Part shown: in pieces, positions 4,022 through 40,104 of the stretch
Layout: the number at the start of each line of letters is the position of its first letter
Position numbering within the stretch: the stretch's first letter is position 1
Source of the DNA: Candidatus Staskawiczbacteria bacterium
Lineage (GTDB): Bacteria; Patescibacteriota; Minisyncoccia; Minisyncoccales; Staskawiczbacteraceae
Length of the DNA: 52,707 nt
Assembly: GCA_903885445.1 (NCBI GenBank)
Contig: CAISIO010000044.1
Span: 1-52,707 of the forward strand
Reading direction: 5' to 3'
The notes under the pieces: generated by a model
The model's database searches: none
What the model saw: the letters and a program-made list of their open reading frames with translations, nothing else
What the model was told of the DNA's origin: nothing
Program-made: the position numbers and the translations under genes

Positions 4022-4033
4022 ATTTGCTAAGGG

Positions 4034-4064
4034 TTGACATTTGGTCAGAAAGATTTATTATTAT
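4034..4064 (+). promoter_or_regulatory. sigma70-like promoter of GC-rich cassette A
   Basis: TTGACA at 4034-4039 and TATTAT at 4059-4064 (19-nt spacer; ATTATT at 17 nt). GC content rises just downstream. Confidence 0.45.
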
Positions 4065-4121
4065 ATCAACACGCAGGTTTCGTTTTTTTGACAACCGCAA
4101 CCCCTTTCGTGAGGCTAAACC

Positions 4122-4640
4122 ATGAGGCTCAACCGAATCTCGGTATTGTTTATTCTTGTAGCCGTAGGCGTCACTCTTCTGTCTGGCGGGCGAATTCAGC
4201 GCTGGGTCGCTGAAGAAGGAGTGATGGCTCAACCGGTAGCTTTGAGCGCCACTAGTACCATCCTCGCAATGGATGGACTCGATGGCAACAGTACAGTGTG
4301 CTATATCCTGACGAAGGAAACCCGGGAGAAGAACGAGTCCGGGTGGATATGGGAGTTTCGTACCTTGGAGAGCGGCAAGGTAAAGTCCGTCTTCATCAAC
4401 CATAGCCAGTTTATGGACAAGAGCCTGCAGAAGAAGCTCGAATCCCTCGGAATTGGTTATGAAAAGGGCATGCTGGGCGGAGGTCTAGCTCCCTCCAAGA
4501 GCAAGTCTGAATTGCTGCCAGTTCCCGGAAGGAAGCTGCTGGCTTTCAAGGTTGGTTCTGACGGCAAGGCTACGACCATCGTAACTAGGCCAGACGGAAC
4601 AATCCGCCGACGTGGGGTTAATTTTGTTACCGCTAATTGA
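4122..4640 (+). CDS. hypothetical N-terminally membrane-anchored or secreted protein on GC-rich cassette A
   Basis: 172-aa ORF. GAGG at 4111-4114 lies 7 nt before the ATG. N-terminal hydrophobic helix RISVLFILVAVGVTLLSGG. G/C-rich codons unlike neighbours. No family recognised. Confidence 0.6.
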   Translation: MRLNRISVLFILVAVGVTLLSGGRIQRWVAEEGVMAQPVALSATSTILAMDGLDGNSTVCYILTKETREKNESGWIWEFRTLESGKVKSVFINHSQFMDKSLQKKLESLGIGYEKGMLGGGLAPSKSKSELLPVPGRKLLAFKVGSDGKATTIVTRPDGTIRRRGVNFVTAN

Positions 4641-4728
4641 TAGCGGCAGGTGCCAAATTCTTTCATCGGATGAGGCGCTCTTTTTTTTGGGAGTAAATTA
4701 TGATATACTTTTAAAATAATTAAAATTT

Positions 4729-5421
4729 ATGGATAAACAAATAATAATTTTGTTCGGGCAACCCGGAGCCGGCAAGGGGACTCAAGCAGAGCTTTTAGTT
4801 GATAAGCTTGGGTTTCATCACTTTGAATCCAGCAAAGTCTTGGAAGCATTTTATAAAAAAGAAGATCCGGAAAAAGTCGTTGTGGCTGACGGAGAAAATT
4901 TTAAAGTTGGCGATGAAATAATCCGTTGGAAAACAGGACTGCTAAACAGCCCAAAGTTTGTTGTTGCTTTATTCTCGCAAAAAATAAAAGACTTGGCTGA
5001 TGAGGGCGAATCAATTGTGTTTTCCGGTTCTCCAAGAACAGCTTATGAGGCGGAGAAAGAAATACCTCTTTTTATAGGGCTTTATGGGCTGGAAAATATA
5101 AAACTTGTAGTTCTTGAAATATCAGCAGAAGCGACTATTTTCAGAAATTCTCACAGAAAGATTTGCGACCTGATGCGACACACAATTTTATTTACCCCGG
5201 AAACAGAAAATCTGACAAAATGTCCTCTTGACGGATCGGATTTAGTTGCCAGAAAAGGTCTTGATGATGTCGAAACAATAAAGAAAAGAATCCAGGTTTT
5301 TCATGACGAAACTTTGCCGGTTTTAGAAATTGCGGAGAGATTTGGTTTGCGCGCTCACAAGATAAATGCCGAGCAAACCGTGGCCGATGTCCATAAAGAC
5401 GTATTGGCCGCAATAAAGTAG
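4729..5421 (+). CDS. adk: adenylate kinase
   Basis: P-loop IILFGQPGAGKGTQAELL; conserved position before map. Confidence 0.9.
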   Translation: MDKQIIILFGQPGAGKGTQAELLVDKLGFHHFESSKVLEAFYKKEDPEKVVVADGENFKVGDEIIRWKTGLLNSPKFVVALFSQKIKDLADEGESIVFSGSPRTAYEAEKEIPLFIGLYGLENIKLVVLEISAEATIFRNSHRKICDLMRHTILFTPETENLTKCPLDGSDLVARKGLDDVETIKKRIQVFHDETLPVLEIAERFGLRAHKINAEQTVADVHKDVLAAIK

Positions 5422-6165
5422 ATGATAACAATAAAAACACCGGAAGAAATTAAAATAATTGCCGAAAGTGGAAAGATTTTGGCTGACGCCATCAGAGAAA
5501 TAGAAAAAATGGCTAAGCCCGGAATTACCACCAGGGAATTAGACAGGACTGCAGAGGCCTTTATTTTGTCTAAGGGCGCAAAGCCGGCTTTTAAGGGCTA
5601 TGAAGGTTTTCCATATGCCTTGTGTGTTTCAGTAAACGAGAATATTGTGCATGGATTTCCTTCGGGCTATGTTTTAAAAGACGGTGATTTATTAAAACTT
5701 GATTTGGGAGTTTTGTATAAAGGATTTAATACTGATATGGCAATAACAGTTGCGGTTGGAAATGTTTCTTTTGAAGCAAGGAGGTTGATGAATGTGACAA
5801 AAAAATCTTTGAGATTAGGAATTAAAAAAGCAAAAATTGGAAACACAATTGGAGACATCGGCAACACCGTACAAAGATTTGTGGAAGACCAGGGTTTTGA
5901 TGTTATCAGGGATTTATGCGGGCACGGAATTGGAAAAAGCGTGCACGAAGATCCGAAAATTCCTAATTTCGGCAAGAGAGGCGGAGGCGAAAAATTAGTT
6001 GAGGGAATGGTAATTTGCATTGAGCCGATGGTTTCAGCAGGGGATTATAACTTAAAAAAATCCGGCGATGGCTATGGTTATGCAACCGCTGACAATTCAC
6101 TGTCAGCTCACTTTGAACACACGATTGCAATTACCAGTCGAGGCCCGCGGATTTTAACAGAATAA
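5422..6165 (+). CDS. map: type I methionine aminopeptidase
   Basis: Motifs VHGFPS, DLGVLYKGFNTDMAITV, GHGIGKSVHEDP and HFEHTIAIT. Confidence 0.95.
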   Translation: MITIKTPEEIKIIAESGKILADAIREIEKMAKPGITTRELDRTAEAFILSKGAKPAFKGYEGFPYALCVSVNENIVHGFPSGYVLKDGDLLKLDLGVLYKGFNTDMAITVAVGNVSFEARRLMNVTKKSLRLGIKKAKIGNTIGDIGNTVQRFVEDQGFDVIRDLCGHGIGKSVHEDPKIPNFGKRGGGEKLVEGMVICIEPMVSAGDYNLKKSGDGYGYATADNSLSAHFEHTIAITSRGPRILTE

Positions 6166-6186
6166 ATTTTATAGTAAAATAAATTT

Positions 6187-6903
6187 ATGAAGAATTTAAT
6201 TGTGGCGAATTGGAAGATGAATCCTAATTCGCAAAAAGAAGCTAAGGACATCTTTGACGCAATAAGGGAGGGCGCTAGAGGGCTTGATGCTGAAGTGGTT
6301 GTCTGTCCGCCGGCTGTTTATTTATATGCTTCTGGGTTTGGCCAAGGAATTATTTCGATGGGCGCCCAAAATGTGCATTTTGAGGACAAGGGGGCCTTTA
6401 CCGGAGAAATTTCGGCCTTAATGATTAAAGATTTGGAAGCTGAATATGTAATAATTGGGCATTCAGAAAGAAGAAAATATTTTGGCGAGACAGACGAGAG
6501 CGTAAATAAGAAAATAAAAAAAGCGCTCGAAGCAGGGTTGAAAATTATTTTCTGCATCGGTGAAACAGCAGAAGAAAGAGACGCCGGAAAGAAAAACGAA
6601 GTTTTGGAAAGACAAGTAAAAATTGGGCTGTTCGGTATTGATAATTTAGAAAATATAAACATAGCTTATGAGCCGGTGTGGGCAATTGGAACCGGAAATA
6701 ATTGCTCGGTTGAGGAAACTAAAGAATCTGTAAATTTTATAAGAAAATTTGTAAAGCCCAAAACAAGAATACTTTACGGAGGCAGTGTGAAAAGTGAAAA
6801 CTCTGGCGGATATATAAAAGATGCCGGAGCGAACGGATTATTGGTAGGTGGTGCATCGCTAAGCGCCGAAGAATTTGTAAAAATAATAAAATCCGCTGAA
6901 TAG
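6187..6903 (+). CDS. tpiA: triosephosphate isomerase
   Basis: Motifs VANWKMN, IIGHSERR, AYEPVWAIGTG and YGGSV. Confidence 0.95.
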   Translation: MKNLIVANWKMNPNSQKEAKDIFDAIREGARGLDAEVVVCPPAVYLYASGFGQGIISMGAQNVHFEDKGAFTGEISALMIKDLEAEYVIIGHSERRKYFGETDESVNKKIKKALEAGLKIIFCIGETAEERDAGKKNEVLERQVKIGLFGIDNLENINIAYEPVWAIGTGNNCSVEETKESVNFIRKFVKPKTRILYGGSVKSENSGGYIKDAGANGLLVGGASLSAEEFVKIIKSAE

Positions 6904-6912
6904 CGGATTTTT
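6891..6912 (+). terminator. intrinsic terminator overlapping the tpiA stop
   Basis: ATCCGC-tgaata-GCGGAT hairpin followed by TTTT. TTGACA at 6915-6920 follows as a likely promoter for the next gene. Confidence 0.55.
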
Positions 6913-6951
6913 AGTTGACATGATTTCGTAATTATTTAAAGATGCGCTTAT

Positions 6952-7482
6952 ATGGAAAATAATGACATATTAACCAGCGGGCATTTTTTTAGCCCCAGCA
7001 AGGGAGATTTGACTTCAGCGGAAGTTATTAAAGATATTTTTGGTTATATGCAGGAAATGCCCGATAAACAGTATGAAGTTATTGTTGGCACAGATTCGCC
7101 TTCGTCCGATAAGCCGTTTTTCCCGATTGCTGTTGTTGTTTTAAGGATAGGGGCCGGAGGAAGGTTTTTCCTGAAAAAAATGCACTATCCGGATTCTTTT
7201 TTGAAAAAGTTTGCCAATGTGCCGACCAATTGGAAGATGCGAATTTTGCAGGAAGTTTATTTGTCTTGCGAGTTGGCTTTGTCTTTGCGCGAAACTTTGG
7301 AAAAAGAGAATAAATTAGGCTCGAAATATTTATTTGAATATATACACGCTGATGTGGGAGAGGTTGGCAAGACAAAAGAAATGATAAAAGAAGTTGTGGG
7401 ACTAATTAAAAGCAGCGGTTTTGAGCCGCGCATAAAACCGCAATCTTTTGCTGCCACAGTGGTGGCAGACAGATATACGTAA
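6952..7482 (+). CDS. YkuK/DUF458-like (RNase H-like fold) protein
   Basis: F.SPSKGDLTSAEV...YEVIVGTDS...IKPQSFAATVVADRYT resembles my memory of B. subtilis YkuK (GTDS core, ...ADRYT end). Confidence 0.65.
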   Translation: MENNDILTSGHFFSPSKGDLTSAEVIKDIFGYMQEMPDKQYEVIVGTDSPSSDKPFFPIAVVVLRIGAGGRFFLKKMHYPDSFLKKFANVPTNWKMRILQEVYLSCELALSLRETLEKENKLGSKYLFEYIHADVGEVGKTKEMIKEVVGLIKSSGFEPRIKPQSFAATVVADRYT

Positions 7483-7504
7483 TCGGGTCAACGCGTTGAC
7501 CCGA
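7483..7504. repeat. 22-nt perfect palindrome (hairpin) right after the stop codon
   Basis: TCGGGTCAACG|CGTTGACCCGA read directly. Confidence 0.8.
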
Positions 7505-7507
7505 TGG

Positions 7508-7527
7508 CCGCCGCAAGGCGGTTTTTT
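7508..7527 (+). terminator. intrinsic terminator
   Basis: CCGCC-GCAA-GGCGG followed by TTTTTT. Same stem and GNRA-loop design as the secY terminator. Confidence 0.7.
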
Positions 7528-7530
7528 GTT

Positions 7531-7553
7531 ACCTGCCTGCCGGCCAGGCAGGT
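7531..7553. repeat. GC-rich hairpin/palindrome, near-copy at 47765-47783
   Basis: ACCTGCCTG-ccggc-CAGGCAGGT (9-bp stem). 7535-7554 matches 47765-47783 except for a 1-nt indel. Confidence 0.75.
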
Positions 7554-7590
7554 TGCGGGATATTATTTTTTGAGGTAAAATATAGAATAC

Positions 7591-9375
7591 ATGAAATCCT
7601 CTGAATTACGGCAGAAATATTTGGATTTTTTCAAAAGCAAAGGGCACAAGATAATTCCCAGCGCTTCTTTGATTCCGGAAAACGACCCAACTGTTTTGTT
7701 TACAACCGCCGGAATGCATCCATTGGTGCCGTATTTGTTGGGAGAAAAACATCCCGAAGGCACAAGGCTAACCGACTCGCAAAAGTGCATAAGGACCGGA
7801 GATATTGACGACGTTGGCGACGACATACATAATACATTTTTTGAAATGCTTGGTAATTGGTCGTTGGGAGATTACTGGAAAGAAGATGCCATAAAATGGT
7901 CGTTTGAATTTATAACAGAAGAATTAAAAATTCCATTGGATAGATTTGCAGTTTCTTGTTTTGCCGGAGATGATGACGCGCCGAAGGATGAGGAATCAGC
8001 AAAAATATGGGAAGGCCTGGGAATTAAAAAAGAAAGAATCGCATTTTTACCAAAAGAGGATAATTGGTGGGGACCGGCCGGAGAAACTGGACCATGCGGT
8101 CCGGACACGGAGATGTTTTATTGGAAATTAAATGACACCCCTGCGCCAAAAAATTTTGACGCAAAAAATAAAAATTGGGTTGAAATCTGGAATGATGTTT
8201 TTATGCAGTATGTGAAAGATAAAGATGGAAATTATAATTTGGCGGCTCAAAAAAATGTTGATACCGGAATGGGGCTGGAAAGAACCTTATCTGTGTTAAA
8301 TGGAAAAGAAAACAGTTACGAAACGGATTTATTTTTGCCGATAATCGAAAAAATTAGCGGGCTGGCGAAGGAAAAATATGAAGGTGAGTATGTAAAAGCA
8401 TACAGAATTATTGCAGACCACATAAAAGCTGCGGTGATGCTCATCGGAGACGACAAAGGCATCGTGCCTTCAAACAAAGACCGAGGTTATGTTTTGCGCA
8501 AATTGATAAGAAGAGCCGTGAGATATTCTGATGTTATTAAAATGAAGTATGGAGAGTTGCAGACGGAATTTGTTTTGGATTCTGTTGTTGACGCTGTTAT
8601 TGAAATATATAAAGACGCGTACCCGGCTTTGTATAAAAACAGGGAAATGATAATCAGCGAAATTTATAAAGAAGAAGTCCAGTTTAGAAGTACGTTGCAA
8701 AAAGGTTTGAGAGAATTTGAATTATTAAGAGCTATAGATGTTATCTCCGGAAAAGATGCTTTTAATCTTTATCAGACCTATGGATTTCCGATTGAGGTGA
8801 CTTTGGAGTTAGCAAAAGAAAAGGGCGTGAAAGTAGATGTCGAAGGATTTAATGAAGAATCGAAAAATCATCAGGATTTGTCGCGAACAGCTTCCGCCGG
8901 AGTGTTTAAAGGAGGATTGGCTGACCATTCAGAACAAACTACAAAATTGCATACAGCGGCGCATTTGATGCTGGCGGGGTTGAGAAAAGTTTTGGGAACG
9001 GAGGCTTACCAAAAGGGAAGTAATATAACCGCCGAAAGATTGAGATTTGATTTTTCTCATAAAGAAAAAATGACCGGTGCACAAATAAAAGATGTGGAAA
9101 ATTTTGTAAATGGTATAATAGAAAAAGACTTGCCTGTTTCGTTTGAAGAAATGACTTTGGACAAGGCCAGAGAAATAAATGCGATGGGAGTTTTCGAATC
9201 AAAGTACGGCGAGAAAGTAAAAGTTTACACGGTTGGTTCGGGTGATAATATTGTCAGCAGGGAAATTTGCGGAGGACCTCACGTGGAAAGAACCGGAGTT
9301 TTAGGTAAATTTAAAATACAAAAAGAAGAAAGCTCCTCTTCAGGAGTTCGGAGAATTAAAGCTATTTTAGAATAA
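7591..9375 (+). CDS. alaS: alanine--tRNA ligase, short form (no C-Ala domain)
   Basis: FFKSKGHKIIPSASLIPENDPTVLFTTAGM and FEMLGNWSLGDYWK. Editing-domain motifs HTAAHLM and CGGPHV. 594 aa. Confidence 0.93.
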   Translation: MKSSELRQKYLDFFKSKGHKIIPSASLIPENDPTVLFTTAGMHPLVPYLLGEKHPEGTRLTDSQKCIRTGDIDDVGDDIHNTFFEMLGNWSLGDYWKEDAIKWSFEFITEELKIPLDRFAVSCFAGDDDAPKDEESAKIWEGLGIKKERIAFLPKEDNWWGPAGETGPCGPDTEMFYWKLNDTPAPKNFDAKNKNWVEIWNDVFMQYVKDKDGNYNLAAQKNVDTGMGLERTLSVLNGKENSYETDLFLPIIEKISGLAKEKYEGEYVKAYRIIADHIKAAVMLIGDDKGIVPSNKDRGYVLRKLIRRAVRYSDVIKMKYGELQTEFVLDSVVDAVIEIYKDAYPALYKNREMIISEIYKEEVQFRSTLQKGLREFELLRAIDVISGKDAFNLYQTYGFPIEVTLELAKEKGVKVDVEGFNEESKNHQDLSRTASAGVFKGGLADHSEQTTKLHTAAHLMLAGLRKVLGTEAYQKGSNITAERLRFDFSHKEKMTGAQIKDVENFVNGIIEKDLPVSFEEMTLDKAREINAMGVFESKYGEKVKVYTVGSGDNIVSREICGGPHVERTGVLGKFKIQKEESSSSGVRRIKAILE

Positions 9376-9404
9376 ATATATATCGCTCCGCTAAATTAAA
9401 ATTT

Positions 9405-10697
9405 ATGGCAAGAAAAATATACGACATAAAGCCGCCAAAAACGGTTAAAAAAGCCGAAAAAGAATTAAAAGAGCCGGTAGCTATCAAAAGGATTAAGCGA
9501 ACCGAGCCAGTACACCAAAGCCGTTATAAAAAAGAAAAACGCCCGGTTTGGGTACCGGTTTCAATTTGCGCACTGATTGTTGTTTTTGTTGTCGGCGTAT
9601 ATCTGTTTATTAAATTGCCAAAAGCCGATATAATTATCTGGCCAAAGGTAGAAACGCTTAGTTTTAAGCAGACTATAACGGCAGATAAGTCTGTTGATTC
9701 AGTTGATACTGTAAAATCCATTATCCCAGCAAAATTTTTGCAGGTAACCAAGACAGGTTCGCAGGATTTTCCGGCAACCGGCAATGCTTCAAATGAGGGA
9801 TATGCCTCCGGCACTATAACAATATACAATAAATTTGATCCGGTCTCGCCGTTTACCTTTAAAGCGGGCACTCGCTTTATATCGGATTCGGGAAAGCTTT
9901 TCGTTGCTTCACAAAAAATTGTAATTCCTGCAGCAAAAAAATCCGGCAGTAAAATTACGCCAGGATCAATCTCTGTGAAGATTCAGGCGGTTGAGGGAGG
10001 GGATGTTTATAATATCGCTCCTTCTAATTTTTCAGTGCCCGGGTTAAAGGGGACAGCGTATTACTATAGTATTTACGCGACATCAACCAGCCCGATGACC
10101 GGCGGTTATGCCGGAAAAGTTAAGAAAGTAACAGACGACGATATTCAGGGGGCAAAGGACGTTTTAACCAAAAAAACAACATCTGACGCAACGGCTGCAT
10201 TGAAAAGCCAGGTTTCGTCTGATTATGTTTTGTTAGATAATTCGATTCTATCTACCGCCACTAGCGCCTCAACAAAAACAAAAGTTGGAACAACCGCAGA
10301 TAATTTTAATTATCAAGTAACCGTTTCTGCCAGCGCTTTAGCCTTTGCCAAAGCCGACCTGGACCAGTTTGCGAAAGATTATGTTGTTTCACAAATACCG
10401 GAGGGAAAAACTTTATTGGATAACAGTTCTAAAATAGATTATTCAGCCGGGTTGGTGGATGTTTCCGGCGGCAAAGCAGTTCTTAATTTGGATTTTTCAT
10501 CAGGCGTCTATCAAAACGTTGATAAAAATTCTTTATCTCTATCAATGCTTGGCGAAAATTACAGCCAGATAGAACAAACAATAAACAGCACTTTAGGTGA
10601 TAATGTTTCTAGGAAGCAAATTAAATTTTGGCCTTTCTGGGTGACCTCTGCCCCAAGAAACCAAAAGGCCGTCACAGTTGAACTGAAATTCCAATAA
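9405..10697 (+). CDS. hypothetical single-pass membrane protein with large extracytoplasmic domain
   Basis: 430-aa ORF. Basic N-terminus, then TM helix VWVPVSICALIVVFVVGVYLFI, then a Ser/Thr-rich domain. Possibly baseplate-J-like, from memory only. Confidence 0.6.
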   Translation: MARKIYDIKPPKTVKKAEKELKEPVAIKRIKRTEPVHQSRYKKEKRPVWVPVSICALIVVFVVGVYLFIKLPKADIIIWPKVETLSFKQTITADKSVDSVDTVKSIIPAKFLQVTKTGSQDFPATGNASNEGYASGTITIYNKFDPVSPFTFKAGTRFISDSGKLFVASQKIVIPAAKKSGSKITPGSISVKIQAVEGGDVYNIAPSNFSVPGLKGTAYYYSIYATSTSPMTGGYAGKVKKVTDDDIQGAKDVLTKKTTSDATAALKSQVSSDYVLLDNSILSTATSASTKTKVGTTADNFNYQVTVSASALAFAKADLDQFAKDYVVSQIPEGKTLLDNSSKIDYSAGLVDVSGGKAVLNLDFSSGVYQNVDKNSLSLSMLGENYSQIEQTINSTLGDNVSRKQIKFWPFWVTSAPRNQKAVTVELKFQ

Positions 10698-10744
10698 AGA
10701 CTTGACCTTTAAAGGATAGTTTGCTAATATATCATTATATACAA

Positions 10745-10978
10745 ATGCCCACAAACGAAGGGAAAAAAGAACAAGTTATAAAGAAAGACGGAAGGGTTAT
10801 AGAGGCTTTACCAAACGCTTTTTTTAAGGTAGTATTAAGCGACGGCAAAGAGATTATGGGATTCCTGTCAGGGAAGATGAGGATGAATAGGATAACTATT
10901 TTACCGGGAGATAAAGTTTCAATTGAGATGAGCCCGTACGACGAAGGTAAGGGAAGAATAGTTTACAGATTAAAATAG
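10745..10978 (+). CDS. infA: translation initiation factor IF-1
   Basis: [44 protein letters not shown]...GRIVYRLK. The ATG at 10745 is preferred over the TTG at 10721. Promoter TTGACC-17-TAATAT lies upstream. Confidence 0.92.
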
Positions 10979-11040
10979 AATTTTATAAGCGAAAACTAAA
11001 AAAGTTTTTTTAGTTTATTTTTTTAATTTTTTCAATATCA

Positions 11041-11157: not shown

Positions 11158-11171
11158 TTATAAATAAAAAC

Positions 11172-11561: not shown

Positions 11562-11570
11562 AATAAAACT

Positions 11571-14086: not shown

Positions 14087-14461
14087 ATGAAAAAAGCAGT
14101 AGAAAAAATACAAAGGAAAATTATCACATTGGATGCGGAAAACAAACCCTTGGGCAGATTGGCTGTCGAGGTTGCTGTTTCGCTTCGCGGGAAAAACAAG
14201 CCCAGCTATGTTCCATATAAAGATATGGGAGACACTGTTATAGTGAAAAATATTGAAAAAATGATTTTTACCGGAAATAAACTGGAAAACAAAAATTATT
14301 TTCATTTCACAGGATACATAGGAAATTTGAAAAAAACAACCTTAAAAGAATTTTTAATTAAGAAGGGCCCTAAAGAAGTTTTAAGAACCGCAGTGATGGG
14401 GATGCTTTGCAAAAATAAATTACGAGCAAAACAAATTAAAAGGTTAAGATTTGAAAAGTAA
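14087..14461 (+). CDS. rplM: 50S ribosomal protein L13
   Basis: LGRLAVEVAVSLRGKNKPSYVPYKDMGDTVIVKN; precedes rpsI. Confidence 0.93.
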   Translation: MKKAVEKIQRKIITLDAENKPLGRLAVEVAVSLRGKNKPSYVPYKDMGDTVIVKNIEKMIFTGNKLENKNYFHFTGYIGNLKKTTLKEFLIKKGPKEVLRTAVMGMLCKNKLRAKQIKRLRFEK

Positions 14462-14462
14462 C

Positions 14463-15050
14463 ATGCCAGAGAAAAAAACAACAACCAAAAAAACAGTGAA
14501 AAAGCCGGAAGAAAAGCCAGCTATTGTTGAAGTTGCAGAAATAAAAGTAGAGATAAAGGCCCCGGTTTATGTTGCTCCACAGGATCCTCTGGAAAAAATT
14601 GAGGACGATAATATTTCAGAGGAAATTGCAAAGGCTATAAAAGAAACAGCCGGCAAGCCCGACAGGTATTTTGAAGCAATCGGAAGAAGGAAAACCGCTG
14701 TTGCAAGGGTAAGGCTTTACACGAAAGGCGACAAGGAATTTATTGTAAACGACCAGCCATACATAAAATATTTCCAGACAACAGAAGACCAGGAGTCCGC
14801 CGTTTGTTCAATGTAAAAAATGAAATGTTTAGATACGTTCAGGGTAACGGTTGTTGTGAAAGGCGGAGGACACAGGGCGCAAGCAGAGGCAATAAGGCAC
14901 GGAACAGCCAGGGTGTTGGTAGATTTCAATGCAAACTTTAGAAAGAGATTGAGAAAAGCAGGTTTCCTAACAAGAGACCCAAGGATGAGAGAAAGAAAGA
15001 AATTCGGACTAAAGAGAGCAAGGAAATCCCCGCAGTGGGCAAAGAGGTAA
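14463..15050 (+). CDS. rpsI: 30S ribosomal protein S9, interrupted by an in-frame TAA at 14814-14816 (two ORFs, same frame)
   Basis: N-part has [19 protein letters not shown]-part has [23 protein letters not shown]...[30 protein letters not shown]. Both ORFs are in one frame, reading ...CSM*KMKC.... YF-to-GGG spacing equals E. coli S9 if the stop counts as one residue. About 60-aa Lys/Glu-rich N-terminal extension. Confidence 0.85.
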
Positions 15051-15063
15051 AGAAATTAAAAAA

Positions 15064-15084
15064 GCCGGCGCAAGCCGGTTTTTT
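15064..15084 (+). terminator. intrinsic terminator after rpsI
   Basis: CCGGC-GCAA-GCCGG followed by TTTTTT. Confidence 0.7.
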
Positions 15085-15085
15085 G

Positions 15086-15113
15086 TTGACTTTTGAATTT
15101 GTTGGAGTAGATT
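15086..15113 (+). promoter_or_regulatory. sigma70-like promoter of GC-rich cassette B
   Basis: TTGACT 15086-15091, 16-nt spacer, TAGATT 15108-15113. Confidence 0.45.
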
Positions 15114-15162
15114 TAAATAAGAACCAAGCCAACCTGGTCTTGTCATTTTGAGGAGACAAACC

Positions 15163-15528
15163 ATGCCAGACAAGTATAGGAGCCGGTTTCGTCCTTTGGG
15201 GCTCTCGGGCACTCCGAGATGTCCGTATTGTGGCCAGCCGATGGTACCGTCAGATGACCATGGCAATTACGCCTGCTTTTGCCAAGGACTGAAGTACTTT
15301 GGCTCTGATAGCGTAGAGTTGAGAACGCCCCGGATTCGGCAGGTGGATACGGCGGGGATGACCAACGCGCAGAAGGCGAAAGTTGACCCGATACATCGGC
15401 TCCATTCTGCGCCAACTGCGGCGGAGCAGAAGCTCCTTGATCTTATGTTGAAGGGGCCTGGAGCTATGGATGACCCGGAGTACACCAAGGCACTTGAGGA
15501 TGTGGCGAAAGAGCGTGGTGGAGGCTGA
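15163..15528 (+). CDS. hypothetical small protein with putative zinc ribbon (cassette B, ORF1)
   Basis: GAGGAG 15150-15155 lies 7 nt before the ATG at 15163 (the ORF-track start 15148 is a TTG). CPYC-x14-CFC motif. 121 aa with G/C-rich codons. Confidence 0.55.
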   Translation: MPDKYRSRFRPLGLSGTPRCPYCGQPMVPSDDHGNYACFCQGLKYFGSDSVELRTPRIRQVDTAGMTNAQKAKVDPIHRLHSAPTAAEQKLLDLMLKGPGAMDDPEYTKALEDVAKERGGG

Positions 15529-15755
15529 TGGATTGGTCCCTTACCAATTTGGAGGAAACTATGCCAGATAACAAGCATTCTGGGTCGACACTTGCGTTGA
15601 CTTTGATCTCGCCTTCGTTGAACGACGAGCCACGCGAAGGGCAAAGGGTTAAACCTCTTGGCCAGAAGACTACAGCCAAGGGCTGGGTCAAAGGACTTTG
15701 TCGCCCTGCATCAAGGGCCAGCCGGCTCAAGAAGCTTGGTGGCGGACCCGTTTAA
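15528..15755 (+). CDS. hypothetical small basic protein (cassette B, ORF2)
   Basis: ATG overlaps the ORF1 stop (TGATG). Alternative start at 15561 sits behind GGAGG 15551-15555. Lys/Arg-rich C-terminus. A weak hairpin plus T7 follows at about 15757-15779. Confidence 0.45.
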   Translation: MDWSLTNLEETMPDNKHSGSTLALTLISPSLNDEPREGQRVKPLGQKTTAKGWVKGLCRPASRASRLKKLGGGPV

Positions 15756-15815
15756 CCACAGCGGGCTGTTTTTTTGCGGATTTGCACAAAATTTTTAAAG
15801 TGATAAAATGTTAGT

Positions 15816-30971: not shown

Positions 30972-30976
30972 TTTAT

Positions 30977-33505: not shown

Positions 33506-33518
33506 TTTTGTAAAAAAT

Positions 33519-34406: not shown

Positions 34407-34427
34407 TTGGTATAATTAGATAATTTT

Positions 34428-35354
34428 ATGATTTACGATTTAATTATTATCGGAGGCGGGCCGGCTGGAATTACTGCCGGAATTTACGCGGGCAGGCAGA
34501 AAATGAAGACGCTTTTGATGACAAAAGAGTTTGGCGGGCAAATGGCTAAAAAAGCCACAGAAATATGTAATTACCCCGGATTCGAAAAAATTTCCGGAGC
34601 CGAGCTTATAGAAAAATTTGTCGGGCATTTGGAAAAGCAGGAATCGGTTGAAATAAAATTTGCAGAAGCTGGAAGAGTTGAAAAAGAAGGCGGTGTTTTT
34701 ACTGTCACAACAACCGAAAACGAAAAAATCCAAAGCAATTCGGTAATTATCGCAACCGGAGCTGATCCAAGGCCGCTGGAAGCAATTGGAGAAAAAGAAT
34801 TTATTGGAAAAGGAGTGGGATATTGCGTTACTTGCGATGGCCCGATTTTTAAAAATAAAACAATTGCGATAGTCGGCGGAGGAAATGCTGGATTTGAGGC
34901 AGCTTTGTTTATGACAAATTACGCCAGTAAGATTTATATTCTGGAATTTGGAACTGAACCGAAAGCAGATCAGGAAAACAAAAATGAAGCCAAGAAATCT
35001 GATAAGATAGAAATTATTACAAATGCGTCGGTAAAGGAAATCAAGGGCGATAAGTTTGTCGGTTCGCTGATTTATCAGGATAATATATCAAAAGAGAATA
35101 AAGAACTGGAAGTGCAGGGAGTTTTTATAGAAATTGGAAGCCAGCCGGCAACTGCTTTAGTAAAAGGACTAGTTGATTTTACAAAGCGCGACGAGATAAT
35201 GGTTGAGTCGGAAACGTTCCAGACAAAAACGCCCGGCCTTTTTGCCGTTGGCGATGACAACTCCGGCCCATACAAACAAATTATCACAGCAGCGGGCGAA
35301 GGATGCAAAGCATCTTTAGCCGCGTATGATTATTTGAGAAAAGTAAAAAATTAA
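34428..35354 (+). CDS. trxB: thioredoxin-disulfide reductase
   Basis: IIIGGGPAGITAGIYAGR, the redox motif CVTCDG, GGGNAGFEAA and FAVGD. Confidence 0.9.
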   Translation: MIYDLIIIGGGPAGITAGIYAGRQKMKTLLMTKEFGGQMAKKATEICNYPGFEKISGAELIEKFVGHLEKQESVEIKFAEAGRVEKEGGVFTVTTTENEKIQSNSVIIATGADPRPLEAIGEKEFIGKGVGYCVTCDGPIFKNKTIAIVGGGNAGFEAALFMTNYASKIYILEFGTEPKADQENKNEAKKSDKIEIITNASVKEIKGDKFVGSLIYQDNISKENKELEVQGVFIEIGSQPATALVKGLVDFTKRDEIMVESETFQTKTPGLFAVGDDNSGPYKQIITAAGEGCKASLAAYDYLRKVKN

Positions 35355-36580
35355 TGAGTAAGATTAAGGAAATAATTGCCAGGGAAATTAAGGATTCACG
35401 GGGAAACCCGGCTGTTGAAGTTGAGTTGGAGACGGAAAAGGGGAGTTTTGTTGCTGGAGTGCCGTCGGGAGCTTCTACCGGGGAAAACGAGGCGTTGGAA
35501 TTGAGAGATGCTGATGGGAAAGGAGTTTCTGAGGCGATTAAAAATGTAAATGAAATTATTGCACCAAAACTGAAAGGCAAAGACGTATTAAATCAAAAGG
35601 AGATAGACGTCTTTTTGGTTAAATTAGATGGGACTGAAAACAAATCTAAGCTTGGAGCGAATGCTGTTTTGGGAGTTTCAATGGCTGTTTGCCGAGCAGG
35701 AGCTGGCGCAAAAAAAGTTTCTTTATATAAACATATACAAGAATTAGCCGAGACAAAGTCACTCGCTGTTCCGCTGGCGATGTTTAATATTTTAGAGGGC
35801 GGAGCGCATGTTCATTTAGAAAAACATTTGGATATCCAGGAATTTATAATTATTCCGGAAAAGAAAACTTTTGCAGAAAATTTAGTTTTATGCAATAAGG
35901 TCTTTCAAAATTTAAAGAAACTTATTGAAGATAATTACGGTCCAACGGAAATGGGAGACGAGGGCGGATTTGCTCCGCAAATTTCTAAAACAGAGCAGGC
36001 TTTATATTTGTTAAAAAATGCTATTGGAACAGACGAAATTAAAATTGCCCTGGATGTTGCCGCTTCGCAGTTTTTTGAGAATGGAAAATATAATTTAGAA
36101 GACAGAGAACTGACAAGGACGGAACTTTTGGAGTTTTTTGCAGGATTGGCCGCCAGTTTTCCTATAATATCGATTGAAGACCCATGCGATGAGACTGACT
36201 GGCAAGGGTTTGAATCTTTTACACAAAAATTGGGAAGTAAAATTATTATTGTTGGAGACGATTTAACAACGACAAATATTAAAAGAATAAAAGAGGCCCA
36301 CAGCAAGAAAGCCTGCAACGGGGTTATTTTGAAATTAAACCAGATTGGGACGGTTGCAGAAACGATTGAGGCGTCTAATTTGGCAAAGTCCTTCGGCTGG
36401 AAGACAATTGTGAGCCATAGAAGCGGAGAAACGATGGATGATTTTATCGCGGATTTGGCAGTTGGTTTGGGAGCAGATTTTTTAAAAGCCGGCTCCCCCG
36501 CAAAACCGGAAAGAATGGCTAAATATCAGAGATTATTACAAATTGAGCAAGAATTAATCAAACAAAATAAGAATGGCTAA
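35354..36580 (+). CDS. eno: enolase
   Basis: SRGNPAVEVEL, GDDLTTTN and SHRSGET. Confidence 0.95.
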   Translation: MSKIKEIIAREIKDSRGNPAVEVELETEKGSFVAGVPSGASTGENEALELRDADGKGVSEAIKNVNEIIAPKLKGKDVLNQKEIDVFLVKLDGTENKSKLGANAVLGVSMAVCRAGAGAKKVSLYKHIQELAETKSLAVPLAMFNILEGGAHVHLEKHLDIQEFIIIPEKKTFAENLVLCNKVFQNLKKLIEDNYGPTEMGDEGGFAPQISKTEQALYLLKNAIGTDEIKIALDVAASQFFENGKYNLEDRELTRTELLEFFAGLAASFPIISIEDPCDETDWQGFESFTQKLGSKIIIVGDDLTTTNIKRIKEAHSKKACNGVILKLNQIGTVAETIEASNLAKSFGWKTIVSHRSGETMDDFIADLAVGLGADFLKAGSPAKPERMAKYQRLLQIEQELIKQNKNG

Positions 36581-37241
36581 ACTTTTTTTATTAAGGCATT
36601 TAAAATCGCAATGGAACTTAGACGACCGCTTTGCCGGCTGGACTGACGGGCCGCTTGCAAAGGACGCAAGTTTGGGAGCGAAGGAATTGGCAGGAAGTTT
36701 TTCAGAGATTGATTTCGACAAAATTTATTGTTCGGCGCTTTTTAGAAACATGGACACGGTCGCCAAGATTTTCGAATATATTCCTGAAAAATATCCATTA
36801 TTTTTTCATTTAGACGGAGGCAAGATGCAGAAATGGGAAAATTACGAAAATCCTAGCGGGAATGAGGTCCACGTTTATGTCACCGAAAAATTAAATGAAA
36901 GATACTACGGTTCTTTGCAGGGAATGAACAAAGAAGAAGTGGTTAAGAAATACGGCGAGGAGCAGGCGAGATTGTGGAGAAGGGGCTTTAATAACGATCC
37001 GCCGGGAGGAGGCGAAGGGTTAGACGAAGTTGTTAAAAGGACTGTTCCTTTCTATAAAAAGTATATAGAGAAAGACCTGGAAGATGGAAAGAATGTTTTG
37101 GTGGTTGCCAGCCATAACAGCTTGAGAGCAGTTGTTAAGTATGTCGAAAATATATCAGACGAGAATATAATTAATTTAGAGTTACCGTTTGGCGCGCTGA
37201 TGAAATATCAATTTGACAACGGCCGATATAATAAAATATAA
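36573..37241 (+). CDS. gpmA: histidine-phosphatase family phosphoglycerate mutase
   Basis: LLRHLKSQWN (variant of RHGxSxWN), ERYYGSLQG and ASHNSLRA. Confidence 0.8.
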   Translation: MAKLFLLRHLKSQWNLDDRFAGWTDGPLAKDASLGAKELAGSFSEIDFDKIYCSALFRNMDTVAKIFEYIPEKYPLFFHLDGGKMQKWENYENPSGNEVHVYVTEKLNERYYGSLQGMNKEEVVKKYGEEQARLWRRGFNNDPPGGGEGLDEVVKRTVPFYKKYIEKDLEDGKNVLVVASHNSLRAVVKYVENISDENIINLELPFGALMKYQFDNGRYNKI

Positions 37242-37282
37242 TAAGCAATTAAATAAAATTATTAAAAATAAAAAATAAAAGC

Positions 37283-38365
37283 ATGCCCAAGTTCAACTTC
37301 GGTTTTTTAAAGAATATAAATAAAAATACCATTCTTGCCGCGATAGCGATTATAGCAATTATTATCACCGGCGGTTTGATTTTTGCCAGTAAAAACCATG
37401 GCTTTTCTTTGCCGACAATTTTTGGCAAGTCCGACGCGGAAATCGGAAAAGCGACTGTTGATTATATCAACAACAACAAGCTTTCGCAGTCTACAGCCTC
37501 TTTAGTGAGCGTGTCGGAAGAGTCGGGGCTGGTTAAAATAAAAATAAAAATAGGTACTAGCCAATTTGACTCGTATGTTACAAAAGACGGGAAATTTTTG
37601 TTCCCGGATGCGACCCAAGCCATCAATATGGCTCCCGTAAAAGGCGGTAAAACAGTCGGCTCGAGCACGGGAAAAACCGCAGAAGAGATAATTGCTTCAA
37701 TTAAGAAAACAGGCACGCCGTCATTGGAAGCATTTATTGTAGCGCGATGCCCATTTGGTTTGCAGATGCAAAGAATGGTTGCCGATGCCGCAAAAAATAT
37801 ACCAAGCCTGGCTAATTATATAAAGATTAGATATATCGGTTCTGTCTCAGGAAATTCCTTGGTTTCAATGCACGGAGACGCAGAGGCAAAGGAAAACCTA
37901 AGGCAAATTTGCATTCGAGAAGAACAGCCCGCAAAATTTTTGGATTATTTATCCTGCCAGATGAAAGCAGCCGGAACGGAAGTAAGTTGTGAAAAATCCA
38001 CGGGCGTAGATTCTGCCAAGCTAAGCGCCTGTATCTCGGCTCCGAGCAGAGGAATAGCTTACGCGCAAAAAGATTTCGACCTGGCAAATAAATACGGAGC
38101 AGAGGGATCGCCAACATTGATTCTGAATGGAGCCGAGGCTCCAGAGTTTACGCCCGACGGCAAGGCGGTATTCGGGAGCAGCAGGTCCTCAGACGAATTG
38201 AAAACAATTGTTTGTGATGCGTCAACAACCGCGCCGGGTTTTTGCTCAACAAAACTAAACACAGCAGAGGCAGCAACTTCTTTTTCAGCAACATACGGCT
38301 CGTCGTCGGCTGCCGCTGCCGGAAATTCCGGAGCCACCGGAGCTAATTGCGCGCCCGCACAATAA
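37283..38365 (+). CDS. membrane-anchored DsbA/thioredoxin-fold-like protein with monothiol CPFG motif
   Basis: N-terminal TM helix. ARCPFG sits where CxxC is expected. GSPTLILNG resembles the cis-Pro loop of DsbA-family proteins. Ala/Ser-rich tail. Confidence 0.45.
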   Translation: MPKFNFGFLKNINKNTILAAIAIIAIIITGGLIFASKNHGFSLPTIFGKSDAEIGKATVDYINNNKLSQSTASLVSVSEESGLVKIKIKIGTSQFDSYVTKDGKFLFPDATQAINMAPVKGGKTVGSSTGKTAEEIIASIKKTGTPSLEAFIVARCPFGLQMQRMVADAAKNIPSLANYIKIRYIGSVSGNSLVSMHGDAEAKENLRQICIREEQPAKFLDYLSCQMKAAGTEVSCEKSTGVDSAKLSACISAPSRGIAYAQKDFDLANKYGAEGSPTLILNGAEAPEFTPDGKAVFGSSRSSDELKTIVCDASTTAPGFCSTKLNTAEAATSFSATYGSSSAAAAGNSGATGANCAPAQ

Positions 38366-38386
38366 TATAGCACTACGCTAAAAACT

Positions 38387-38632
38387 ATGGTAAAAATATA
38401 TTCCACGCCAACTTGCGTGTATTGCAAAACATTAAAGGGCTATTTTAAGAAGAATGCTATAGAATTTGAGGATATTGATATATCCAAAGATGAACAACAA
38501 TTGCAGAAAATGATAAAAGACTCCGGGCAAATGGGGGTGCCAGTTGTTGATATAGACGGAGAAGTTATAGTTGGCTTTGATAAAGTAAAAATTGATACAC
38601 TACTAAAAATAAATCAAATAAAGCATGATTAA
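38387..38632 (+). CDS. glutaredoxin-like protein (NrdH/YruB type)
   Basis: KIYSTPTCVYCKTLKGYF...GVPVVDIDGEVIVGFD. Confidence 0.85.
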   Translation: MVKIYSTPTCVYCKTLKGYFKKNAIEFEDIDISKDEQQLQKMIKDSGQMGVPVVDIDGEVIVGFDKVKIDTLLKINQIKHD

Positions 38633-39626
38633 AATTGCTATAAACGGCTTTGGGCGAATTGGGCGGCAAGTTTTCAAACATATTGAGGGGTCGCACCCGG
38701 ATTTGGAGGTTGTTGCGATAAACGACTTAACAGACACAAAAACCCTGGCTCATCTTTTAAAACACGATTCTACTTACGGAAACTACGGCAAAGAAATAAT
38801 CGCCAAAGAAAAATCAATTATTGTTGCTGGAAAAGAAGTGCCGGTTTTGGCCGAGAAAGATCCGGAAAAACTACCGTGGAAAGATTTGGGCGTAGACATA
38901 GTTTTGGAATGCACCGGATTCTTTACCGATGACGCCGGCGCAAGAAAACATATTAAAGCTGGAGCAAAAAAAGTTATAGTTTCAGCTCCCTGCAAGGATT
39001 TGCCGGGATTTGTTTTAGGTGTTAACGCTGACACGCTTGATATTGGAAAGGTTGACGTGATGGATATGGGTTCTTGTACTACAAATTGTTTAGCTCCAAT
39101 TGCAAAGGTTTTAAATGACGAATTTGGAATTGTAAAAGGTTTTATGACAACGGTTCACAGTTATACAAATGACCAGAAGGTTTTGGATTTGCCTCATAAA
39201 GACTTGAGAAGGGCAAGAGCCGCGGGATTGAACATTATCCCGACTTCAACCGGAGCCGCAAAAGCCATTGGCAAAATGATTCCTGAATTAAACGGAAAAC
39301 TGGACGGAATTTCTATTAGGGTTCCAACGCCGACTGTCTCTGTTTTGGATTTAATTGTTGAAATTAAAAGAGAAACAACAAAAGAAGAAGTGAACGCGGC
39401 ATTCAAAAAGGCTGCTGCCGAAAAAAACTTCAAAAGAATTTTGAGAGTGGAGGACGAACCGTTGGTTTCAATGGATTTTAAAGGCGATACTTATTCCGCC
39501 ATAATTGATTCGGCAGAAACGATGGTAAATGGAAATATGGTAAAAGTTTTGGGCTGGTACGACAACGAATGGGGATATTCTTGCAGGCTCGCGGAATTCG
39601 CGGAGTTTGTGGGGAAAAAATTGTAA
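38625..39626 (+). CDS. gap: type I glyceraldehyde-3-phosphate dehydrogenase
   Basis: KIAINGFGRIGR, SCTTNCLAP and WYDNEWGYS. Confidence 0.95.
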   Translation: MIKIAINGFGRIGRQVFKHIEGSHPDLEVVAINDLTDTKTLAHLLKHDSTYGNYGKEIIAKEKSIIVAGKEVPVLAEKDPEKLPWKDLGVDIVLECTGFFTDDAGARKHIKAGAKKVIVSAPCKDLPGFVLGVNADTLDIGKVDVMDMGSCTTNCLAPIAKVLNDEFGIVKGFMTTVHSYTNDQKVLDLPHKDLRRARAAGLNIIPTSTGAAKAIGKMIPELNGKLDGISIRVPTPTVSVLDLIVEIKRETTKEEVNAAFKKAAAEKNFKRILRVEDEPLVSMDFKGDTYSAIIDSAETMVNGNMVKVLGWYDNEWGYSCRLAEFAEFVGKKL

Positions 39627-39636
39627 GATAAATTAA

Positions 39637-39663
39637 GAAAAACCTCGACGTACGAGGTTTTTT
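39637..39663 (+). terminator. intrinsic terminator after gap
   Basis: AACCTCG-acgta-CGAGGTT followed by TTTT. Confidence 0.7.
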
Positions 39664-39678
39664 GTTGGCGTTGAAACA

Positions 39679-39707
39679 TTGACGCACATATTTTGATATG
39701 TTACTAT
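39679..39707 (+). promoter_or_regulatory. sigma70-like promoter of GC-rich cassette C
   Basis: TTGACG 39679-39684, 17-nt spacer, TACTAT 39702-39707. Confidence 0.5.
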
Positions 39708-39770
39708 ATAGCCGTGTTCAAGGCGATGTTTTTTTGTAAGGTAGTCAGCCCTTTTCGAGGAGACCTGATA

Positions 39771-40046
39771 ATGACGGATATGATGTCGGAAAAAGAGATT
39801 GAGAAATTGGTCATCGAAATCGTCGCTGACCAACTCAACATCGACAAGGACGAGATCAGCCGAGCGTCGCGCTTTGTCGATGACCTGAACATCGATCAAC
39901 TGGACGAGGTGGAGCTGGTGATGGAATTCGAGGACGAATTCGAACTTTCCATCCACAGCGATGAGAAGATACGGGAACTAGGAACAGTTGGGGCGGCCAT
40001 AGACTTCGTCAGAGACGAACTCAAAACTCAGGGCCGGCTGACCTAA
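39771..40046 (+). CDS. acyl-carrier-protein-fold protein lacking the phosphopantetheine-attachment serine (DSL -> DQL)
   Basis: GAGGAG 39757-39762 lies 8 nt before the ATG. FVDDLNIDQLDEVELVMEFEDEFELSIHSDEKIRELGTVGAAIDFV aligns to the ACP core L.ADSLD.VELVM..EEEF...I.D.........V.DAV.YI. The Gln codon CAA is at 39897-39899. 91 aa, very acidic. Confidence 0.7.
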   Translation: MTDMMSEKEIEKLVIEIVADQLNIDKDEISRASRFVDDLNIDQLDEVELVMEFEDEFELSIHSDEKIRELGTVGAAIDFVRDELKTQGRLT

Positions 40047-40069
40047 TAGAGAGCGCGCATTGCGTTGAT

Positions 40070-40104
40070 GCCTTGTTGCAATTTTTGTGGCGAGGCTTTT
40101 TTTT
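40070..40104 (+). terminator. intrinsic terminator of cassette C
   Basis: GCCTTG...CGAGGC hairpin followed by TTTTTTTT. An extended -10 (TGaTATAAT, about 40129-40137) for pduL follows. Confidence 0.55.

Follow-up and report, generated by a model that had tools for sequence, protein, structure and literature searches.

Genomic setting and shared layout of the cassettes

We analysed a stretch of 52,707 nucleotides (the window), read on the forward strand of contig CAISIO010000044.1 (assembly GCA_903885445.1), in which three short GC-rich units lie between conserved housekeeping operons. The window has an overall GC content of 39.7% and carries nearly all of its genes on the plus strand, among them the spc and alpha ribosomal operons, secY, adk, map, alaS, murA, mreB, gatCA, eno, gap, pduL and ackA. 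Its Cas4-like nuclease belongs to a 90% cluster labelled 'Candidatus Staskawiczbacteria', the three genomes with the nearest adk genes are all metagenome-assembled genomes of Staskawiczbacteria, and the window is a chromosomal contig of 'Candidatus Staskawiczbacteria' (Parcubacteria; Candidate Phyla Radiation, CPR). The three units, which we call cassettes 1, 2 and 3, span positions ~4030-4690, ~15085-15775 and ~39668-40104 and occupy the secY|adk, rpsI|nuclease and gap|pduL slots, respectively. They encode a putative membrane-anchored protein (P1), two small orphan proteins without detected relatives (P2 and P3) and a protein derived from acyl carrier protein (ACP). The cassette features described below are all on the plus strand.

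A preliminary description of this DNA had reported, from hand counts, that the three segments are far richer in GC than their surroundings, and the profiles that we ran along the window bear this out. The cassettes have a GC content of 50-57%, and their open reading frames (ORFs) reach 52.5% (4122-4640), 56.6% (15163-15528), 54.9% (15561-15755) and 50.4% (39771-40046). The GC content at third codon positions (GC3) is 0.55-0.67 in the cassette ORFs compared to 0.28-0.45 in all 63 other ORFs, and the codon adaptation of the cassette ORFs to the native gene set falls 5.5-8.4 standard deviations under the native mean. Cassettes 1 and 2 also rank among the most deviant windows in 3-mer composition.

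The same order of predicted elements recurs in the three units: an intrinsic terminator of the upstream conserved gene, a -35/-10 pair, a leader, a Shine-Dalgarno (SD) element, one or two ORFs, and a hairpin followed by U7-U8. The -35/-10 pair begins 1-14 nt past the upstream T-tract in AT-rich DNA (GC 0.25-0.29), and composition switches to 0.44-0.48 at the predicted transcription start, from which leaders of 43-57 nt extend to the first ORF. The SD elements (GAGG, GAGGAG or GGAGG) stand 5-8 nt ahead of the ATG. An SD core precedes five of five cassette starts compared to four of 62 native starts (Fisher p = 1e-4, with four cassette ORFs counted), and at the four native starts it is poorly spaced. 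Thus the common layout and orientation, the separate terminators, the change in composition at the predicted start and the scarcity of SD elements before native genes, all noted in the preliminary description, hold up as sequence predictions. Its proposal of a related context around the SD elements survives in part, since the sequences share 8-mers (AAACCATG, GAGGAGAC) but give no significant alignment.

Comparisons among the cassettes retrieved no shared repeats, target-site duplications, terminal repeats or attC-like sites; T-runs and 8-12-mers were all they had in common. Folding detected no significant structure in the three leaders (z -1.0 to +1.0), and the Rfam search of the whole window at the gathering score returned tRNAs and 16S rRNA only. 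On these two results, a riboswitch, thermometer or attenuator in the leaders was rejected. In a codon-likelihood test trained on GC-rich genes, the annotated frame scored best for all four cassette ORFs, by a narrow margin for P2 and P3. We also considered a defence or toxin-antitoxin role and dropped it, as none of the four cassette proteins matched PADLOC below E = 0.04.

Native genes follow another pattern. In the window and in sibling loci (L022, L025 and L029), a TATAAT element stands 8-10 nt upstream of the ATG of first genes, which therefore look leaderless from their sequence. The native ATG downstream lies 40 nt past the T-tract of cassette 1 (4689-4728, ahead of adk), 41 nt past that of cassette 2 (15775-15815, ahead of the gene for the Cas4-like nuclease) and 41 nt past that of cassette 3 (40105-40145).

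Cassette 1 and the P1 family

The upstream boundary of slot 1 is a predicted intrinsic terminator after secY (3999-4023) with an 8-bp stem, five GC pairs and a T-tract. The predicted promoter of cassette 1 (TTGACA-16-TATTAT, 4034-4061; GC 0.25) matches at 11 of 12 positions, is the best match within the first 20 kb and is presumably active. Past it, the GC content rises to 0.48 at the predicted start of the leader (4068-4121; fold z -1.0), which ends in a GAGG element at 4111-4114 with a predicted anti-SD duplex of -5.7 kcal/mol. Even at a relaxed threshold (E<1), Rfam returned nothing for cassette 1 but a chance match on the secY terminator. The ORF at 4122-4640 encodes P1, a 172-residue protein of a rare family with a predicted N-terminal membrane anchor (GC 0.52, GC3 0.60, codon adaptation index z -8.4). 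A terminator-like hairpin with U8 follows at 4649-4688; it was recognized by folding, its imperfect stem having been overlooked by the pattern scan. Across the P1 start codon lies a 13-nt tandem duplication (4110-4134: TGAGGCTAAACC, then A, then TGAGGCTCAACC), so that the SD region recurs as the first codons of the ORF.

The interval between secY and adk is 744 bp in the window. In three Staskawiczbacteria genomes (L018-L020) the two genes overlap or lie at most 45 bp apart, with adk directly after secY in L018 and L019 and a terminator after secY in L020. The long interval of the window is therefore lineage-specific.

Relatives of P1 are few. A word-indexed search of 5.8 billion protein clusters gave no match, and two clear relatives, P0061 (47% identity) and P0063 (32%), emerged when 1.84 billion representatives were scanned in full with HMMER. 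Of 11 genes examined on the 56% GC contig that encodes P0061, 10 are preceded by an AGGAG-type SD, and GC3 there ranges from 0.62 to 0.90. P0063 is encoded in L066, next to a lysS gene of 39% GC that is faced by a predicted promoter (TTGACA-17-TAGTAT). Past this promoter, GC rises to 0.55-0.61 (540-1443), and an SD-led ORF for a Cys-rich protein of 77 residues is followed by the SD-led P1-family gene and a T-run. The P1-family protein of L066 has 171 residues when read from the ATG at 851, which places the gene caller's start 30 nt too late. Judged by its sequence features, L066 represents a second AT-rich genome with this cassette architecture. A similarity between its Cys-rich ORF and P2 was sought and not found, and the proposed link was rejected.

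Protein-level conservation in the P1 family extends over a domain of ~120 residues that includes the motifs Y-I-x-T-K-E-T-R, Q-F-M-D and L-G-I-G-Y-E-K-G-M. Structure prediction with AlphaFold2 gave poor models (a predicted local distance difference test score of 41 from the single sequence and 59 from a three-sequence alignment), and Foldseek found nothing in the PDB (best E 0.09, TM-score <0.3); hence, no fold could be assigned. A YadA-like assignment was also rejected: the match, at 29% identity, is to a repeat of which a Paraburkholderia adhesin has 12 copies, and we treated it as weak because repetition inflates its E-value. P1 may be a cell-surface protein held by its N-terminal membrane anchor, which would be consistent with a surface-exposed role.

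Cassette 2 and its orphan proteins

Slot 2 opens with a predicted intrinsic terminator after rpsI (15059-15084; 11-bp stem and T6), and an equivalent terminator follows rpsI in siblings L011 and L013. The predicted promoter of cassette 2 (TTGACT-16-TAGATT, 15086-15113) matches at 9 of 12 positions. A TTGAC or TTTAC -35 element stands at an equal position after the rpsI T-tract in the window, L011 and L013 despite their different cargo. The predicted leader (15120-15162; fold z -0.44) has a GAGGAG element at 15150-15155.

The first ORF (15163-15528; GC 0.57) encodes P2, a 121-residue orphan with a zinc-ribbon-like CxxC-x14-CxC motif. Its zinc-ribbon matches are all sub-threshold, and no homologue was detected in 5.8 billion protein clusters, IMG/VR, Pfam, NCBIfam, PHROGs, PADLOC or the PDB. 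The second ORF (15561-15755), preceded by a GGAGG element at 15551-15555, encodes P3, a basic orphan of 64 residues for which protein-cluster, PHROGs, PADLOC and IMG/VR searches detected no homologues. Gene callers choose for P3 an alternative, coupled start at 15528 that would yield 75 residues. However, P2 and the 64-residue P3 begin in similar contexts, AAAC(C/T)ATGCCAGA(C/T)AA (15158-15173 and 15556-15571), and both start with Met-Pro-Asp, which favours 15561 as a genuine start beside the coupled ATG. The predicted terminator, a hairpin and T-tract (15741-15774), overlaps the end of the P3 ORF. From its sequence, cassette 2 is likely a two-gene unit for a zinc-ribbon protein and a small basic protein.

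In siblings the gap between rpsI and the nuclease gene holds other genes: an S26 peptidase, a 71-residue ORF and PurM in L011, and PurL and PurM in L013. This cargo is also elevated in GC (0.44-0.53), and the L011 genes have AGGAG-type SDs.

Cassette 3 and its serine-less acyl carrier protein

The predicted intrinsic terminator after gap (39638-39664) bounds slot 3 with a 10-bp stem and T6. Although the scan assigned it to the minus strand, its stem is palindromic and the T6 lies on the plus strand. A terminator follows gap in 14 of 15 sibling loci examined. The limits of the insert were defined with the empty site of L029, where GCACTTTTTTGT comes directly after the gap terminator. In the window, this sequence begins at 40105, after the terminator of cassette 3; the insert is therefore ~39668-40104.

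The predicted promoter (TTGACG-17-TACTAT, with a TG element, 39679-39707) matches at 9 of 12 positions and is partly conserved in L016. The stretch 39679-39722 resembles the head of a cassette for a radical-SAM protein in the same slot of L043 (~1300-1345; ATTGAC ... ATATGnTA..AT.TAGCCGTG), and the two promoters may be a shared module with different cargo. The predicted leader (39714-39770; fold z +1.0) carries a GAGGAG element at 39757-39762, and the unit ends with a predicted terminator of 12-bp stem and T8 (40070-40104).

The ORF at 39771-40046 encodes an acidic protein of 91 residues that matches TIGR00517 (8e-20), PF00550 (1e-6) and ACPs in the PDB (3e-14). Its scores lie close to or above the family cutoffs (71.3 bits against 71 for NF002148, 70.4 against 70.45 for TIGR00517 and 29 against 20.8 for PF00550) and, at the sequence level, identify it unambiguously as an ACP homologue. 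The phosphopantetheine-bearing serine lies in a D-S-L motif in all 14 canonical homologues aligned. The corresponding residues are D-Q-L in the window protein, whose Gln occupies the alignment position of the modified residue in 7pdi, and D-E-I in its orthologue P0023. Because this serine is replaced, the protein cannot carry acyl groups; the preliminary description had called it apo-locked.

The nearest relative of the ACP-like protein is the orthologue P0023 (84% identity), followed by canonical acpP proteins. The closest canonical cluster (66% amino acid identity) is annotated as Phycisphaeraceae (Planctomycetota) and is encoded on a contig of 64% GC, just upstream of a fabF-like gene; 135 nt of this Phycisphaeraceae-type acpP align to the window at 78%. 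By sequence, then, the gene derives from a Planctomycetota-type acpP. Compared with the ORF in L016, it has 0.75 synonymous (dS) and 0.077 non-synonymous (dN) substitutions per site and a dN/dS of 0.10, a substitution pattern that shows purifying selection. CPR bacteria are expected to lack fatty-acid synthesis. The ACP-like protein keeps the acidic helix II, including Glu at positions +5 and +11 from the former serine, and this conservation, together with the low dN/dS, suggests a protein-binding role. By analogy, the protein is most likely a protein-binding module.

Nineteen metagenomic loci retain both gap and pduL. The two genes are 66-283 bp apart in 12 of them, and the short spacers that we read consist of the gap terminator and, right behind it, the pduL promoter. 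The other seven hold unrelated inserts of 0.6-2.8 kb on either strand, with a GC content (0.40-0.50) above the average of their own locus and products that include a radical-SAM protein, HEAT-repeat and membrane proteins, and orphans. None of the 19 loci carries an ACP-like gene. A 101-residue ORF in the L027 insert was considered as ACP-like and rejected for want of a Pfam match.

Independent assembly of the junctions

Exact look-ups retrieved P1 on two further contigs (L009 and L010) and P2 on eight (L001-L008). These contigs, assembled from other samples of the project (at least four samples, two assemblers), agree with the window at 98-100% and cover the junctions from rpsI to cassette 2, from cassette 2 to the nuclease gene and from cassette 1 to adk. 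For cassette 3, a naturally diverged orthologue occupies an equal site in L016. A chimeric assembly or an engineered or in-silico origin is therefore excluded for five of the six junctions. For the sixth, from secY to cassette 1, the window contig is the sole evidence, as L009 starts at 4035 and L010 at 4047. Searches for plasmid, vector and viral matches to the cassettes found none. Contig ends in the public data carry some foreign sequence, all of it artefact to be disregarded at junctions: Illumina adapter at 859-863 of L003 (AGATC...), P5 primer at 1-47 of L017, and 46 nt unrelated to the window at the start of L001.

Recombination between strains and age of the cassettes

Alignment of the contigs to the window revealed abrupt changes in divergence. 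L003 differs from the window at 16 positions within 14879-14978, 15 of them third codon positions, and at none within 14979-15734. Similarly, L009 and L010 show no differences in 4035-4877 and 18 and 10, respectively, in 4878-5001. Cassettes 1 and 2 are thus 100% identical beside flanks that differ by ~15%, and they look to have been acquired or spread recently. The three contigs represent either a second, ~15% diverged strain with identical cassettes or short contigs that are strain chimeras. Even if they were chimeric, recent recombination is needed to explain why strains ~15% diverged share a tract of 149 nt or more without a difference.

The pattern at cassette 3 is different. Between L016 and the window, the gap flank is ~80% identical, the leader ~50% and the ORF ~85%, and from the stop codon of the ACP-like gene into pduL the identity is 100% over the aligned stretch. 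The divergence of the L016 orthologue, with its dS of 0.75 and dN/dS of 0.10, therefore indicates from sequence comparison that cassette 3 is old, under purifying selection and adjoined by a recent recombination tract.

Probable acquisition and maintenance in inter-operon slots

The cassettes are horizontally acquired: their composition is anomalous and their presence patchy, and the ACP-like gene and P1 are the two with relatives in distant lineages. They most probably represent three independently acquired accessory units, similar to the morons of phages, that reside in inter-operon slots and spread between strains by homologous recombination. Each would sit in the short spacer between the intrinsic terminator of a conserved operon and the next near-leaderless promoter, which may be the sole place that tolerates an insulated unit without harm to essential operons. 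The DNA would come from GC-richer, SD-using sources and would so far be unameliorated, and for this reason the foreign GC content, codon usage and SD-led starts would persist. Transcription of each unit probably begins at the AT-rich sigma70-type promoter right after the upstream terminator, and insulation by its own terminator would allow the flanking essential operons to keep their expression. The slots would thus act as hot spots whose cargo differs between lineages, and homologous recombination via the conserved flanks would pass cassettes between co-existing strains.

This interpretation keeps much of the preliminary description and amends it in places. The donor-type relatives and the absence of the cassettes from the same sites in relatives agree with its view of foreign, autonomous-looking units. 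The sites that it proposed to inspect in siblings are empty at secY|adk, where the genes are adjacent, and in the 12 short gap|pduL spacers; rpsI|nuclease and the remaining gap|pduL loci hold other cargo. The placement of the units "parked" behind housekeeping terminators is real, but is better read as survival in permissive terminator-promoter gaps.

Several observations weigh against this interpretation. No donor was found for P2 and P3. Searches of billions of proteins gave P1, P2 and P3 hardly any relatives or none at all, which is odd if they came by ordinary transfer from GC-rich bacteria that are well sampled; this rarity hints at an unsampled mobile gene pool. Cassette 3 is the mildest compositional outlier of the three, and the coding evidence for P3 is weak in the codon-likelihood test. 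Promoters and terminators are predictions from sequence only, and promoter-like matches over 20 kb are not commoner than in shuffled sequence (43 compared to 41.8). The cassette 1 promoter alone is striking by itself, matches such as those of cassettes 2 and 3 occurring at chance frequency. The secY-to-cassette-1 junction has no independent assembly, and the contigs in which identical cassettes meet divergent flanks measure only 0.6-1 kb and could be strain chimeras. Furthermore, should the lineage lack an anti-SD, the SD elements of the cassettes may be relics that permit poor translation.

Could the three cassettes instead be parts of a single functional system, gained jointly or co-selected, that is split over three loci, as the preliminary description proposed? 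The orientation, layout and SD-led starts common to all three would fit this, and the apparent co-transcription in L066 of a P1-family gene with a small Cys-rich ORF (CxxC/CxC) loosely recalls P1 and P2. Yet the ages differ, with a dS of 0.75 for the ACP-like orthologue and complete identity of cassettes 1 and 2 beside divergent flanks; the loci of P1 relatives have no P2, P3 or ACP homologue; the four proteins are absent from all 42 pduL loci; the Cys-rich ORF does not resemble P2; and sibling genomes present the same layout with unrelated cargo. With different ages and no homologue of one cassette found beside that of another, the idea of a single functional set is unsupported, and we consider it very unlikely. 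Origin from a prophage or mobile-element remnant, whether true phage morons, integron cassettes or transposon cargo, is quite improbable as well. The architecture does fit the moron definition, PHROGs includes ACP families filed under morons or auxiliary metabolic genes (phrog_5934, 1.5e-13), and ParE/RHH and a helicase with phage-family matches occur in L021, the contig of one P1 relative. But the window ORFs scanned include no integrase, transposase or phage structural gene, the cassettes have neither terminal repeats, target duplications and attC-like sites nor any sequence common to them, IMG/VR yielded no relatives, and the flanks are ribosomal and glycolytic operons syntenic in relatives. 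A viral origin was rejected on similar grounds, as IMG/VR was negative, PHROGs matched the ACP only and L021 has no phage hallmark genes.

The possibility that the GC-rich segments are genes for structured non-coding RNAs, their ORFs being by-products of high GC, concerns mainly cassette 2. GC-rich islands with their own promoter and terminator are a classic signature of such RNAs in AT-rich genomes, the opposite strand of cassette 2 has equally long ORFs (125 residues), and P2 and P3 lack homologues. This explanation is nonetheless highly improbable: homology to ACP and a dN/dS of 0.10 mark cassette 3 as coding, the P1 family is conserved as protein, a properly spaced SD precedes every cassette ORF, the annotated frame is best for all four in the codon-likelihood test, and Rfam at the gathering score contributes no RNA family in the cassettes, nor does it at the relaxed threshold in cassette 1. 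An artefact, in the form of a chimeric assembly, contamination or the engineered or in-silico insertion against which the preliminary description had cautioned, could account for the very tidy promoter-SD-ORF-terminator modules and sharp composition boundaries, and one junction is confined to the window contig. We regard it as extremely improbable, because independent assemblies from several samples and two assemblers reproduce five of six junctions, a diverged cassette 3 orthologue evolves under purifying selection at an equal site, analogous natural cassettes occur in unrelated metagenomes, and no plasmid, vector or viral match was found. A bolder proposal, and in our judgement an unlikely one, is that Staskawiczbacteria, and perhaps other Parcubacteria, have dedicated post-terminator expression slots in which SD-led, GC-rich and mostly orphan cassettes from an unsampled pool are swapped. 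If true, such slots, a resident promoter being present in some, would do the work of an integron without an integrase; SD-led starts would set apart a translation regime distinct from that of the SD-less or leaderless native genes; and the recurrence of the rare P1 family in the unrelated, AT-rich L066 would reflect a common pool.

The reading that we favour, of separate acquisitions into permissive slots, bears on how streamlined, tiny CPR genomes gain and test genes, and this locus illustrates one route at base-pair level.

Shine-Dalgarno use and the translation of native genes

The rarity of SD elements before native genes could reflect a lost anti-SD or initiation that does not depend on SDs. 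The anti-SD motif has been reported in only 48% of Parcubacteria (Tsurumaki et al., PMC9297842). SD-led genes in a genome that otherwise ignores the signal bear on this reported loss in about half of Parcubacteria, and the cassettes may use their SDs. The 16S rRNA gene begins at 52594, and the contig stops 114 nt into it, at 52707, with a tRNA upstream at 52061-52132. A search for the 3' end of the gene through contigs sharing the last window protein retrieved only contigs of 559 bp, and the sibling loci have no rRNA. As a proxy for a functional anti-SD, we considered the frameshift site of prfB and dropped it, since the release factor of the window (49168-49989, minus strand) is an N-terminally short RF1 and not an RF2. 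This protein has 273 residues, the PAT motif of the RF1 type, and PCRF and RF-1 domains without the N-terminal domain; its gene is one of only two on the minus strand of the window.

Other features of the window

An in-frame TAA at 14814-14816 splits rpsI, which encodes ribosomal protein S9, into ORFs 14451-14816 and 14820-15050. In contig L002, assembled from a different sample, this codon reads AAA (Lys), and S9 is a single ORF of 173-188 residues in siblings. Either the TAA arose as an error of sequencing or consensus calling, or it is a variant within the population that cuts short an essential protein. Two more stretches of ~49-50% GC, at 48521-49121 (3' part of ORF 47709-49130) and 37871-38441 (ORF 37283-38365), lie inside long ORFs without a Pfam match and lack the layout of SD, promoter and terminator.

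Comparison with known systems

Morons are defined in phage genomes as genes with their own promoter and factor-independent terminator and with a deviant GC content that implies horizontal transfer, located between otherwise adjacent genes (Juhala/Hendrix; reviewed by Cumby et al., 2012, PMC3594210). The cassettes resemble them as gene units of deviant GC between genes that are adjacent in relatives, with their own, in this case predicted, promoter and terminator. Unlike morons, they are part of the chromosome of a cell, where ribosomal, secretion and glycolytic operons surround them and no phage genes lie nearby. Because they are not in a phage or prophage, they fall outside the moron class by residence. 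Integron cassettes are similar in being small, often orphan, mostly single-gene units at defined positions and, as in the rpsI slot, near a resident promoter. They differ in that the cassettes described here have no attC-like element, no recombinase among the window ORFs scanned and no array, and that each of them comes with its own terminator and, in slots 1 and 3, also with its own predicted promoter.

The ACP-like protein has a parallel in the mitochondrial ACP of Plasmodium, which lacks the modified serine and binds the Isd11-Nfs1 complex (Falekun et al., 2021, PMC8547962). In both cases the ACP fold is under selection after loss of the serine and Glu is kept at positions +5 and +11, and both proteins belong to settings without fatty-acid synthesis, a condition that for CPR bacteria is expected only. 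The serine is replaced by Gln or Glu here and by Phe in Plasmodium, and the window protein is bacterial and horizontally acquired from a Planctomycetota-like acpP. No LYR or Isd11-type protein came to light, although no search aimed at one was made. A serine-less yet conserved bacterial ACP thus parallels the phosphopantetheine-independent mitochondrial ACP of apicomplexans and points to a role in protein binding.

Horizontal gene transfer, genomic islands and singly transferred genes (~0.9 kb on average) have been described in Patescibacteria (Gios et al., 2025, PMC12455944). Like the cassettes, these islets are short stretches of acquired DNA and often phylogenetically ambiguous or novel (PMC12455944). 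The difference lies in the resolution of the micro-architecture, with slots that run from terminator to promoter, conserved slot promoters and donor-type SDs in a recipient that lacks them, and in the view of cargo turnover and inter-strain recombination at base-pair level. The case is therefore an instructive rather than an unprecedented example of horizontal gene transfer into a streamlined genome, to which it adds the micro-architecture of the slots, donor-type SDs in an SD-less host, inter-strain mosaics and a serine-less bacterial ACP.

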